The notes under the pieces were generated by a model that worked only from the letters and a program-made list of their open reading frames with translations, ran no database searches and was not told the origin of the DNA. A program made the translations under genes and the position numbers. Shown here piece by piece: positions 35,301 through 41,579 of a DNA stretch of 64,000 nucleotides. The DNA lies in IMG/VR virus record IMGVR_UViG_3300036790_000425, positions 98,436 to 162,435 of that record; one strand, given 5' to 3'. Within the stretch, counting starts at the first letter, position 1. Each line of letters opens with the position of its first letter. The DNA is from a virus.

Positions 35301-35376
35301 TGGGGAGGATGACGGGACTCGAACCCGCTCCTACTGGGTCCACAACCCAGCCCTTCGACGCTTCGGGCTCATCCTC
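35301..35376 (-). tRNA. tRNA-His(GTG)
   Basis: CTGGG-TTGTGGA-CCCAG; C73; no encoded G-1. Confidence 0.85.
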
Positions 35377-35450: not shown

Positions 35451-35517
35451 ATGCTGGCGAGTGGGGATTCGAACCACCGGGGGCCGTCGCCCTTCCGCTC
35501 CGTGCTCTCGCCAGTCG

Positions 35518-37454: not shown

Positions 37455-38639
37455 CTAGCCCTTGACGCACACCACCTGCTTGATGTGGTGACGGACCTCG
37501 ACCAGGTCCGTCTGCGCCGCGATCACCTCACCGATGTCCTTGTAGGCACCCGGGATCTCATCCAGCACGCCCCGGTCCTTCCGGCACTCGACCCCGTCGG
37601 TCTGGGCCGCCAGGTCGGCCTCGGTGAAGGCCCGCTTCGCCGCGCCGCGCGACATCCGCCGCCCGGCGCCGTGCGAGGCCGAGCACATCGAGTCCCGGCT
37701 GCCGAGCCCGGCCACGATGAAACTGCCGGTGCCCATCGAACCCGGGATGATGCCCAGCTCGCCCAGGCCGGCCCGGATGGCGCCCTTGCGGGTGACCATC
37801 ACCTCAGTGCCGCCCCAGTTCTCCTCCGCCACGTAATTGTGGTGGCAGGAGATCGGCTCGTCCCAGCTGACCGGCCGGCTAAGCGCGGTGTCCAGGGCGC
37901 CCATCGCCAGGCCGAGCATCACCTGGCGGTTGCGCCGGGCGTAGTCCTGGGCCCAGTACAGGTCCCGCCGGTAGGCGTCCATCTCGGGGGTCCCGGTCAG
38001 GAACACCGCCAGGTCCCGGTCCGGCAAGCCGGCATTGTGCGGCAGCGCCCGGGCCGCCTCCATGTGCCGCTCGGCCAGCTCCTTGCCGATGTTTCGCGAG
38101 CCCGAGTGCAGCATCAGCCACACGCGGCCAGCGTCATCGCCACCCTGCTCGGTGCACAGCTCGATGAAGTGGTTCCCTCCGCCGAGCGTGCCCATCTGGC
38201 TGCGGGCCCGGCCGTGCCGGTACTGGACTCCCTCGTGCAGAGCGGCGAAGCCGCCCCAGAACGACTTCCAGGTACCGCCGGTCATCCGGATCGCATGCTC
38301 GTGCGAGCTGAAGCCAACCGGGATGGCCATCTCCAGCTCGATCCGGACCTCGTGCAGGTCATCCGGCAGGTCGCTGGCTGTGAGGTGACTGCGGACTGCT
38401 GTCATCCCGCAGCCGATGTCCACGCCGACCGCCGCCGGGCAGACCGCCTGACGCATCGCGATAACCGAGCCGACGGTGGCGCCCTTGCCGTAGTGAACGT
38501 CCGCCATGACGGCGACCTCGGTGGTCCAGGGGAGGCTCGCCACGTTCCGAAGCTGCTGCTGCGCGGAGGGCTCGATCGTCCAGGGGTCAATCCACACGCG
38601 CACTGGTGCCCGGGTGCCGGGCAGCATCTGGTAAGCCAT
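37455..38639 (-). CDS. rtcB: RtcB RNA ligase
   Basis: MADVHYGKG, VGVDIGCG, GTLGGGNHFIE, HSGSR, SHGAGR, DEIPGAYKDI motifs. Confidence 0.97.
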   Translation of the reverse strand: MAYQMLPGTRAPVRVWIDPWTIEPSAQQQLRNVASLPWTTEVAVMADVHYGKGATVGSVIAMRQAVCPAAVGVDIGCGMTAVRSHLTASDLPDDLHEVRIELEMAIPVGFSSHEHAIRMTGGTWKSFWGGFAALHEGVQYRHGRARSQMGTLGGGNHFIELCTEQGGDDAGRVWLMLHSGSRNIGKELAERHMEAARALPHNAGLPDRDLAVFLTGTPEMDAYRRDLYWAQDYARRNRQVMLGLAMGALDTALSRPVSWDEPISCHHNYVAEENWGGTEVMVTRKGAIRAGLGELGIIPGSMGTGSFIVAGLGSRDSMCSASHGAGRRMSRGAAKRAFTEADLAAQTDGVECRKDRGVLDEIPGAYKDIGEVIAAQTDLVEVRHHIKQVVCVKG

Positions 38640-38675: not shown

Positions 38676-38749
38676 AGCGGATGACCGGGATCGAACCGGC
38701 GACCTCGACGTTGGCAACGTAGCGCTCTAGCCAGCTGAGCTACATCCGC
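38676..38749 (-). tRNA. tRNA-Gly(GCC)
   Basis: Loop TTGCCAA. Confidence 0.9.
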
Positions 38750-38753
38750 ATGT

Positions 38754-39097
38754 GAGCCGGCCTGTAAGCCGGGTTCTGTACCCGCCAGGGGCGGGCGACG
38801 GCCATCCATCTGGGACCGCCATCGCTGACGGCCTCGTGCGGCCTACCAGCCGGCACCGGGCGGGCCGCCCGCCAGCTTCTGGCCTTGCTCCGGGTGGGGC
38901 TTGCCGAGCCGCCCCGGTCACCCGGGACGCTGGTGGTCTCTTACACCACCGTTTCACCCTTACCCCCGAGGGGGCGGTCTGTTCTCTGCGGCGCTTTCCC
39001 GTGGGTCACCCCAGGTTGCCGTTAGCAACCACCCTGCCCTGCGGAGCCCGGACTTTCCTCGGCACCCCGGAAGGTGACGCGGCCGTCCAGCCGGCTC
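38754..39097 (-). ncRNA. rnpB: RNase P RNA (bacterial type A)
   Basis: P1 GAGCCGG/CCGGCTC; conserved GAGGAAAGTCCGGGC, GGTAAGGGTGAAACGGTGGTGTAAGAG, GGAGCAAGGCC, ACAGAACCCGGCTTAC. Confidence 0.95.
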
Positions 39098-39099
39098 AG

Positions 39100-39173: not shown

Positions 39174-39192
39174 AGGCCCGGCCGGAGCCGGG

Positions 39193-39408
39193 TCAGGCAG
39201 CGCCGAACCGGTCGAACTCGCCGTTCCGGACGCCGCCGATGAAGGCCTCCCACTCGGAGGCCGTGAAGACCAGGTGCGGCCTGGCCGGGTGCTTGCTGTC
39301 GCGCACGCCGACCTCGCCGCGCGGCAGGCTGGCTACCTCGACGCAGTTGCCGTTGGCGAAGCTGAGTGATGACTTGACCCACTTAACCGGCAGCTCTTTC
39401 ATGGTCAT
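39193..39408 (-). CDS. DUF397 family protein
   Basis: 'WVKSSLS..GNCVEVA...VGVRDSK.P..PHLVF...EWEAFI.GVR.GEFD'; TATCAT -10 lies 6 nt before the ATG (leaderless). Confidence 0.92.
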   Translation of the reverse strand: MTMKELPVKWVKSSLSFANGNCVEVASLPRGEVGVRDSKHPARPHLVFTASEWEAFIGGVRNGEFDRFGAA

Positions 39409-39428
39409 ACCGGGATGATATCCGTAAG

Positions 39429-39500
39429 CTGAGGGAGCGGGCTTCGATCCCGCGTTGCCCGGGCCAAAACCGAGTGTCCTGCCAGCTAGACGATCCCCCA
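39429..39500 (-). tRNA. tRNA-Gln(TTG)
   Basis: Loop TTTTGGC; U1-A72. Confidence 0.82.
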
Positions 39501-39505
39501 CCGCG

Positions 39506-39578
39506 AGCCCCCGGCCGGAACCGAGCCGGCGACCTCCTGATTACAAGTCAGGCGCTCTGCCAGCTGAGCTACGGAGGC
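39506..39578 (-). tRNA. tRNA-Thr(TGT)
   Basis: CCTGA-CTTGTAA-TCAGG; T-loop CTCGGTT. Confidence 0.85.
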
Positions 39579-39635
39579 AGGCCCCGGGCCGGGGCACCGC
39601 GCAGGGCGCCCTGGGGTGCCGCGGCACCGGGGGTT

Positions 39636-39712
39636 GCAGGTGCCCTCGCCTCCGGGCTGCGCGCCTCCCTCGCGGGCTGCGCGGCGGGACTCGAACCCGC
39701 GATCTGTCCTGC
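39636..39712 (-). ncRNA. Circularly permuted tRNA-like module D
   Basis: GCAGG..GCGGG TTCGAGT CCCGC, CGCGC..GCGCG, CA GCCC GGAGGCGA GGGC A CCTGC. Confidence 0.7.
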
Positions 39713-39715
39713 TCG

Positions 39716-39801
39716 TGTCCGGGGCGGGACTCGGACCCGCACGCCCTTGGTAGGGCACAGCCACCTCAAGGCTGCGCGTCTGCCATTTCCGCCACCCGGA
39801 C
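39716..39801 (-). tRNA. tRNA-Leu(GAG)
   Basis: CAGCC-TTGAGGT-GGCTG; long variable arm. Confidence 0.88.
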
Positions 39802-39802
39802 G

Positions 39803-39876
39803 AGCCCCGACCCAGAATCGAACTGGGGACCTGCTCATTACGAGTGAGCCGCTCTATCCGCCTGAGCTATCGGGGC
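39803..39876 (-). tRNA. tRNA-Thr(CGT)
   Basis: GCTCA-CTCGTAA-TGAGC. Confidence 0.9.
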
Positions 39877-39979
39877 AAGATGTGCCAGGCCTCCGCCGTT
39901 GGCGGGCTTCGCATCCTGGCTTGACGGTGGCTGGCCGCCAGGCCGGGACACTCGGAGGGAGCCACCCTCACCTGGGCTG

Positions 39980-40054
39980 CTGACCACCCTGGACTCGAAC
40001 CAGGAAGTGTCCCGGACCAGAACCGGGCGGGTCTGCCATTTCCCCTAGTGGTCA
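39980..40054 (-). tRNA. tRNA-Gln(CTG)
   Basis: CCCGG-TTCTGGT-CCGGG. Confidence 0.85.
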
Positions 40055-40087
40055 TTGTCGGCGGATTGACGCGCTCCGGCCGGGCGC

Positions 40088-40164
40088 TGGTGGGCGAGGC
40101 GGGAATCGAACCCGCGCCTGTGGCGTTTTTGACGCGCTGCCTCTGCCTGCTGGGCTACTCGCCC
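40088..40164 (-). tRNA. Leu-type tRNA body with ambiguous anticodon (CAA or AAA)
   Basis: Good acceptor, D and T arms plus CCA; anticodon arm GCGCGTCAAAAACGCCA pairs irregularly. Confidence 0.6.
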
Positions 40165-40489
40165 CAGATGATCTGTGACCGGCCGCGAGGGGGATACGGC
40201 GCACCCGGTAGCCCGGTAGCCCTATCCGCGCGATGCCCTTCGCGCGAGCCGCTGACTTTCGTACTGACCCCTCGCGGCCGGTCAGGCTGAAGGTGCGGGT
40301 GCCCGGACCGGCTACCCCTTGTCAGGGTCGGAGGACACGAGCCTCCTGGCCGTCAGCCGGGCGCCTTCCGGAGCTTTCAGGCCGCCCGCTAGCCCGGGAC
40401 TGAGAATCCCGTTCCGCTGCTTCCCGAGGGCCCCGGGATTCTCAGTCCCGGGCTCCGAGGCCAGCACCCTGGCCTGCCCTGCACTCAGT

Positions 40490-40674: not shown

Positions 40675-41137
40675 ATGATGCCCCGCCACCGTGACGCCGT
40701 GGCCGGCAACCCGTTCACGCGCCGGCCCGGAATGCACTTGCGGGCCGGCAGGCATGAGACCAGAGTCGTGCACGACCCTGGCTGGCCCGGGGAGCGTCCT
40801 CCCCGGGGCGGGCTACCGGCTGGTTACGGCCTGCCCGTCATGCCATCGCACAACCCCGGGAATCGAACCCGGCCTACCGGTGCTCCCGGCAGGGCAACCC
40901 ATGCTGCTGCTTTACCCGGGGCGCAGGGCCCGGCGGCCGATCGCGTCCGCCAGGATGCGTGATCCCGGGTGCCCGGGCCCGTCGATCGTCAGGCCCAGCG
41001 GAGCACCGGGAGTCGAACCCGGGCCATCCCGGCTGGACCGCGCCGTAGCGCGCCAGTCCCGGTCTGCTGACCAGCTCAGTTACTCCTGCACGCGAGGTGC
41101 CCCTCGCGCTCCAGCATGCTGGTGCGCACCAGCATCG

Positions 41138-41292: not shown

Positions 41293-41576
41293 AGGGGCGC
41301 TCTGCCATTGAGCTACCCGGACGGCTAAGCCCAGGCCGGGACTCGAACCCGGATCTCCCCGCGGGCTGCTCTGCCGCCTGAGCTACCCGCCAGGAGCGAC
41401 CTGGCGGGGCGGGACTCGAACCCGCGACCTGCCCTGCTGACGGTGGCGTCCTGCCGATTGGACGACTGGCCACCAGGGAGTACTCCCCGGCTCCGGGTCT
41501 CCGGCATCAGGGAGCGCTCCCCTCGGCCGTCCTCCCGGACATAAGACCAGGCGGGACTCGAACCCGCATTACCACC
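41293..41576 (-). ncRNA. Tandem array of three circularly permuted tRNA-like modules (A 41442-41576, B 41362-41435, C 41293-41361)
   Basis: Each has a T-arm (TTCGAGT loop), then a self-closed acceptor hairpin, then a D-arm, all bracketed by a 4-5 bp stem. Confidence 0.8.
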
Positions 41577-41579
41577 AGG

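Follow-up and report, generated by a model that had tools for sequence, protein, structure and literature searches.

Between the genes for tRNA-Leu(GAG) and tRNA-Thr(UGU) in a viral tRNA array lie 77 nt that have the arms of a tRNA in permuted order, and the question they raise is whether this is a gene in its own right and, if so, of what kind. The window analyzed here is the final 64 kb of a 162,435-bp IMG/VR virus record (70% G+C; CheckV completeness of 100%), and its minus strand carries a tRNA array at 34.8-43.0 kb in which 33 tRNA genes were called by ARAGORN and one more by Rfam. This additional tRNA, at window 35304-35376 (minus strand, 44 bits), was missed by ARAGORN. An encoded CCA is missing from most tRNAs of the array. 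Among its other genes are those for an RtcB ligase and for an RNase P RNA of the bacterial class A type (280 bits); when the array was compared with GenBank phages by blastn, matches were confined to RtcB and the tRNAs. A gap of 66 nt between tRNA-Arg(GCG) and tRNA-Val(CAC) (window 35451-35516, minus strand) holds an acceptor-like stem of 8 bp (CUGGCGAG/CUCGCCAG) and a T-arm-like hairpin, with D and anticodon arms absent, and may be a non-permuted, anticodon-free tRNA-like element. The locus under study, hereafter module D, and its immediate surroundings are arranged as follows in window coordinates, read 5' to 3' on the minus strand.

39716..39801, minus strand: tRNA-Leu(GAG), CCA not encoded (tRNA calls).
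39713..39715, minus strand: 3-nt spacer CGA from the tRNA-Leu discriminator to module D (sequence; 2-3 nt across all five phages).
39636..39712, minus strand: module D, an RNA domain of 77 nt with tRNA-like elements in permuted order and no anticodon (MFE fold, descriptor scan, weak YrlA match of 16.8 bits).
39708..39712, minus strand: 5' strand of the closing stem, GCAGG, which pairs with 39636-39640 and occupies the position of the anticodon-stem 3' strand.
39701..39707, minus strand: 7-nt linker ACAGAUC, equivalent to the variable region, with its final C at the C48 position.
39684..39700, minus strand: T arm GCGGG-UUCGAGU-CCCGC with a canonical T loop (fold and Rfam alignment).
39660..39683, minus strand: sealed acceptor helix, CGCGC-AG-CCC-GCGA-GGG-AG-GCGCG, in which CGCGC/GCGCG is followed by tandem A-G/A-G, CCC/GGG and a GCGA tetraloop (sequence and fold).
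39658..39659, minus strand: CA at the U8-A9 position (sequence; UA in the orthologs of relatives G001, G002 and G004).
39642..39657, minus strand: D arm GCCC-GGAGGCGA-GGGC, whose loop has GG and a terminal A (sequence and fold).
39636..39641, minus strand: A26 equivalent and 3' strand of the closing stem, CCUGC (fold).
39582..39632, minus strand: GC-rich hairpin between module D and tRNA-Thr(UGU), common only to the nearest relative, G001.
39505..39578, minus strand: tRNA-Thr(UGU) (tRNA calls).

An earlier, sequence-only reading of this locus had written out the element and drawn a fold for it; the minus strand from 39712 to 39636 matches that sequence exactly, and the proposed structure, rather than any alternative, is both the minimum free energy (MFE) and the centroid structure in ViennaRNA (−40.0 kcal/mol, 84% of the ensemble, z = −1.88 against shuffles). 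The fold was retained when the entire 136-nt gap between the two tRNAs was folded. When folded within 372 nt of precursor, the module lost its closing and D stems, a result that is uninformative because genuine tRNAs in the same stretch were misfolded too. The position given for the element, directly downstream of tRNA-Leu(GAG), was likewise correct: it starts 3 nt past discriminator A39716. The hairpin that follows it is not a terminator, as a U tract is absent. At tRNA positions, module D has T54-A58, G53-C61, G18G19, A21 and G15:C48 (a matter of sequence compatibility only), with C8 and G14 replacing U8 and A14; the Levitt pair G15:C48, as read from the sequence, is possible between the C of the linker and the D loop. 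Neither ARAGORN nor Rfam called a tRNA at 39636-39712, where the acceptor is capped by GCGA and the anticodon loop is absent. Among tmRNA-type features, only the T arm matched RF00023 (12.8 bits) and ARAGORN made no tmRNA call, and the Rfam mascRNA match was also limited to the T arm (11.3 bits). No other match to the exact module D pattern was found in IMG/VR. Comparison of its halves with the tRNAs of the phage identified no parent tRNA, and there is no room for one at the locus, since tRNA-Leu ends 3 nt upstream.

The module is one of several. A descriptor was composed of a 5-bp T stem with a NUCRANN loop, an abutting acceptor hairpin, 2 nt, a GG-bearing D arm and 1 nt, and also demanded a closing stem 4-7 nt upstream of the T arm. 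A scan of both strands of the 162-kb genome with this descriptor returned exactly four modules, A-D, the other three of which form a cluster.

41294..41577, minus strand: three paralogs of D, namely module A (41441-41577), module B (41363-41434) and module C (41294-41360), which follow tRNA-Pro(CGG) directly (descriptor scan).

The topology given in the earlier reading was right. The same reading had called D independent and different in sequence, which was overstated: about 33 of the first 36-37 nt are identical between D and B (about 89%), and a model for which D was the sole input recovered module B at 47.3 bits. This sharing argues for D as a paralog and not an independent invention; by their sequences, D and B look like paralogs of one family, of which this copy is the divergent fourth member in the genome. 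Chance expectation was estimated from a null in which 41 T-arm-like sites were retained and their flanks shuffled. Under strict rules (at least 5 bp in the closing stem, 4 bp in the D stem and no more than 20 nt in the acceptor hairpin), a match of D quality arose in 0.9% of 1000 trials; under the loosest rules there were 0.57 matches per shuffled set, and ≥4 matches in 0.7% of trials. A tRNA-free gap of 462 nt at window 40675-41136 (minus strand) has orphan T-arm motifs at 40859-40869 and 41009-41019 and folds with z = −4.86 against shuffles; it is unaccounted for by the four-module descriptor.

The fold does not represent a new type of permuted tRNA; its architecture is the one known from the tRNA-like effector domain in YrlA RNAs (RF02553). 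In Chen et al. 2014 (PMC4201824), YrlA is an RNA bound by Ro60, with an effector domain that mimics a tRNA in permuted and sealed form, and it was recorded beside Ro60 in 254 bacteria and 22 phages. The structure of YrlA's tRNA-like domain has since been solved by Wang et al. 2018 (bioRxiv 10.1101/312249), with D- and T-stem sequences found to be conserved among YrlAs and the effector left unidentified. In published work, the fold of such domains mimics tRNA, and tRNA enzymes act on them (PMC4201824; bioRxiv 10.1101/312249). With the Rfam YrlA model run in E-value mode, modules B and C scored 40.4 and 32.0 bits (both at model positions 23-85) and module D 16.8 bits (positions 29-81), all three under the gathering threshold of 69 bits for RF02553. 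The matched region of YrlA is its tRNA-like domain (stem, linker, T arm, closed acceptor, D arm, stem), and the order in D is the same. The YrlA consensus T stem GCGGG/CCCGC is present in modules A, B and D. UA-GCUC...GAGC is found in B, in C and in the orthologs of D, whereas D itself departs from it with CA and GCCC/GGGC. The Levitt pair 15:48 is canonical in seven of eight canonical family members (four G:C and three A:U).

Module D and its family have in common with YrlA RNAs the order of elements, the T-stem sequence, a Levitt pair that covaries among members, and variable lengths of acceptor and stem. Module D differs from YrlA RNAs at its ends and in its setting: YrlA RNAs have a Ro60-binding handle, whereas module D has no long 5'/3' helix and no GNCGAAN0-1G motif, and YrlA genes adjoin rsr, whereas module D sits in a tRNA slot. 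With a closing stem of only 5 bp and the end of tRNA-Leu 3 nt upstream, no room is left here for a handle. No TROVE/Ro60 gene was found in this genome (G000) or in four related phage records (G001-G004), either with Pfam or with the Myrna Ro60 protein as query. Judged by its sequence, module D is a YrlA "head" without the handle, in a phage lineage without Ro60, and we found no description in the literature of handle-less YrlA-type modules in Ro60-less phages. The survey in PMC4201824 retained only matches on the same strand within ≤4 kb of Ro60, and dropped those that overlapped tandem tRNAs.

The four related records were retrieved from IMG/VR through their baseplate J protein (G001 with 86% identity; G002-G004 with 68-70%), and their tRNA arrays are syntenic with that of this phage. 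An element is present in the same slot in all four, 2-3 nt past the tRNA-Leu(GAG) discriminator, so the absence from related phages that would have counted against the module was not what we found. In the relatives it is anchored by AG(A/G)UC (4/4) and UAGCUC...GAGC (3/4). MAFFT alignments of paralogs and orthologs were structurally incorrect, and a model-fitted alignment with element-wise parsing was used instead. The D-only model scored 34.7 bits for G001, 15.1 for G002 and 11.5 for G004; the copy in G003 is degenerate and does not align with D. Across the four rows of the model-fitted alignment (D, G001, G002 and G004), 98.8% of cells were paired, against 41-49% in slid controls. In the same alignment, both sides had changed in 12 of the 22 pairs, with all four helices involved, and none of 500 shuffles was as good. 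Closing stems differ yet pair (GCAGG/CCUGC in the window, GCGGGG/CCCUGC in G001, GUGAGG/CCUCAC in G002 and GGUGGG/CCCACC in G004), three of the five pairs of the module D stem being changed on both sides among orthologs. The D stem is GCUC/GAGC in the orthologs as against GCCC/GGGC in module D, a compensatory change from U-A to C-G, and the acceptor helix has a different sequence in every ortholog with its pairing kept and its length ranging over 6-9 bp. These stems stand at fixed offsets from conserved sequence anchors; by our own estimate, a 6-bp stem at a fixed place would arise by chance at ∼0.004 per phage at ∼0.4 per pair. For the G004 ortholog, the unconstrained MFE structure is the same junction. 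The occupation of one slot in four relatives, with helices kept by compensatory change in the three copies that align, also upholds the earlier argument that the module is not an accident of duplication.

What the slot conserves is narrower than a tRNA. The GG of the D loop is absent in G001, and G002 and G004 have hairpins that are not T loops and D loops of 20-25 nt. A canonical T loop in this slot is found only in this phage and its nearest relative, and the D-loop GG only in this phage. The conserved feature is therefore the four-way junction and not clearly the tRNA elbow. Module D is 71% identical to its G001 ortholog, no higher than some neighboring spacers, so constraint on primary sequence gives no argument. 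The spacers at window 39174-39427 and 39877-39978 (minus strand) have 69-77% identity to their G001 counterparts, on par with some tRNAs, and from this likeness may hold additional conserved RNA elements. For module D itself, we conclude that it is very probably a real and selected tRNA mimic of YrlA type that lacks the handle.

One alternative is that the module works only in cis, as a structured spacer derived from a tRNA or Y RNA that shields the adjacent pre-tRNAs against misfolding or guides their processing by RNase Z, RNase P or an exonuclease, with no life after cleavage. Its constant distance of 2-3 nt from the tRNA-Leu discriminator in five phages would suit such a role, and so would the conservation of helices in orthologs without that of the T loop and the D-loop GG; moreover, no promoter of its own (nor any other promoter or terminator) was found within window 39300-40300. 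The wider kin of the phage point the other way. A scan anchored on tRNA-Leu(GAG) yielded 11 IMG/VR contigs, two of which duplicate G001 and G003, and in five of the contigs (four distinct sequences) the module is absent and tRNA-Thr(UGU) follows tRNA-Leu(GAG) after 2-5 nt. Kin with the same array order thus have this junction free of any spacer, which shows a spacer to be unneeded and weakens the purely cis-acting reading. Canonical handle-less modules also occur elsewhere: one fits exactly between tRNA-Ala(GGC) and tRNA-Ala(CGC) (contig L129, 2839-2974, minus strand), and another lies ∼2.5 kb outside the array (contig L133, 781-850, minus strand). These differing slots and copy numbers suggest that the family moves among tRNA slots, like accessory genes. 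The family further retains the Levitt pair and features of the T and D loops for which a mere spacer would have no need, and we regard a role confined to cis as improbable.

The same low probability attaches to a second alternative, that the module is a functionless, drifting relic, either a Y RNA that shed its handle after loss of Ro60 or a tandem tRNA duplication trimmed on both sides. Some mycobacteriophages encode Ro60 and have YrlA genes, namely Myrna and ScoobyDoobyDoo (and ET08 in PMC4201824). The Myrna-type phages are remote relatives of this phage, with 27-30% identity in baseplate J, and their tRNA arrays also contain tRNA-like Y RNA genes, with one YrlA adjoining Ro60 and the others within the tRNA array ∼36 kb away. 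Two of these were located in Myrna itself.

92689-92827 and 95150-95290 of Myrna record NC_011273.1 (L040), in the tRNA array: two full YrlA-type Y RNAs with Ro60-binding ends.

The Y RNA at 95150-95290 overlaps gene 166, annotated as "tRNA-Asp", which by its sequence is probably a mis-annotated Y RNA. Myrna-type YrlAs keep the handle (5' GGGUCGA..., 3' ...AUAUCC and a long terminal helix), whereas module D is closed by 5 bp. In favor of a relic are the full, handled YrlAs inside the tRNA arrays of relatives with Ro60, the stepwise loss of tRNA features in the slot (G000, then G001, then G002/G004, and last G003) and the lack of a module in the slot of further kin. Against a relic stands the manner of divergence: loop and acceptor sequences have diverged fully, yet the four helices remain paired through changes on both sides, where neutral decay would break pairing, and several copies are retained per genome.

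Far less probable is a true circularly permuted tRNA gene, in which RtcB would circularize the transcript and the phage RNase P would open the acceptor end to give a working tRNA. In Cyanidioschyzon merolae, circularly permuted tRNA genes reportedly start with the 3' half of the tRNA and end with the 5' half, a linker connecting the two acceptor strands; they are said to possess a full anticodon loop, a 7-bp acceptor and a discriminator and to mature into working tRNAs through a circular intermediate. Module D resembles them in the order of its halves, and lacks the anticodon loop, the 7-bp acceptor and the discriminator. The idea draws further on two genes that lie ∼0.5-2.2 kb downstream in the same array.

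38749-39098, minus strand: full-length class A RNase P RNA (280 bits, model positions 1-367), between tRNA-Thr(GGU) and tRNA-Gly(GCC).
37455-38639, minus strand: RtcB RNA ligase gene (Pfam E = 1e-116), within the tRNA array.

The flanks of the module (CGA and AACCCCC) would give no anticodon loop, with neither U33 nor a purine at 37, and the acceptor consists of 5 bp, tandem G.A and 3 bp, with 6-9 bp in the orthologs. Neither RtcB nor RNase P RNA was found in the four relatives G001-G004, all of which have the slot element; the module therefore needs neither, and a functional link to them was rejected on the same ground. The class A RNase P RNA itself, being missing from all four relatives, looks like a recent acquisition. 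The closest RtcB homologs (61-68% identity) are from Pseudonocardiaceae and other Actinomycetota, which hints, on protein similarity, at a host range within these groups; used as a query for kin, RtcB led to one non-syntenic contig that is free of tRNAs. Finally, a fold arisen by chance, or a false element pieced together from one tRNA's T arm and the D arm of the tRNA after it, is next to inconceivable: PMC4201824 cautions about false positives of this type, sub-threshold YrlA matches are common at tandem tRNA junctions (9 of 14 control genomes) and loose descriptor rules do yield 0.57 matches per shuffled set, yet both arms lie outside the called tRNAs (of which 39716-39801 and 39505-39578 are the closest), the strict null stands at 0.009 and the orthologs covary.

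The best overall explanation, and probably the right one, is that module D is a gene for a stand-alone, tRNA-shaped RNA that is released from a tRNA precursor and acts by binding a protein. Since neither a promoter nor a terminator was found nearby, we infer that it is transcribed with the array, within a polycistronic tRNA precursor. The module would gain its 5' end when the CCA-less tRNA-Leu(GAG) is processed at its own 3' end, and the 3' limit of the RNA would be set by RNase P cutting before tRNA-Thr(UGU). The expected product would be ∼135 nt, made up of the module and a protective 3' hairpin, with possible trimming to ∼80 nt. It would form a four-way junction whose parts are a canonical T arm, a GG-bearing D arm, an acceptor sealed by a GNRA-capped extension and, in place of the anticodon arm, a 5-bp stem; G15 and C48 could make a Levitt pair. 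Such an RNA could be neither charged nor used in decoding, and its most likely role would be that of a decoy or tether for a host or phage protein that recognizes tRNA shape, at the core or the elbow. That it acts in trans by binding protein is a plausible reading, which we hold tentatively.

Other non-decoding RNAs offer comparisons. The stable RNAs C and D (species 1 and 2) of phage T4 are non-decoding, are co-transcribed with the phage tRNAs and are cut from the same precursor; they have free tRNA-like termini and are neither permuted nor sealed, whereas module D is both. mascRNA and the t-elements of plant mitochondria are also tRNA-shaped, non-decoding and recognized by tRNA-processing enzymes. 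Their acceptor ends are open and cut by RNase P and RNase Z, whereas the acceptor of module D is capped and its termini lie at the position of the anticodon stem. As to the protein bound, only one of five genomes in the lineages that hold the closest RtcB homologs has a TROVE protein, which counts neither for nor against a decoy that competes with a host Ro60 particle.

These results bear on how such genes are recorded. They escape tRNA finders and score under Rfam thresholds, and the survey in PMC4201824 was deliberately limited to 4 kb around Ro60; in at least one cultured phage, Myrna, the gene annotated as a tRNA (gene 166) appears to be a Y RNA. They also bear on the Y RNAs as a family. 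It may be, although we think it unlikely, that the tRNA-like "head" of Y RNAs is an autonomous unit, and that phages without Ro60 deploy the head alone as a tRNA-shaped decoy or tether, which would make it a class of phage anti-host RNA; candidate partners of an autonomous head would include the YrlA effector, a tRNA-targeting defense nuclease, PNPase, or a processing or modification enzyme. A module of ∼77 nt offers a minimal bait for the effector of YrlA's tRNA-like domain. In soil actinophages that lack Ro60, the handle-less domain has been kept in tRNA slots by compensatory evolution, and the conservation of a domain that has no handle for Ro60 argues for a job that is independent of Ro60.
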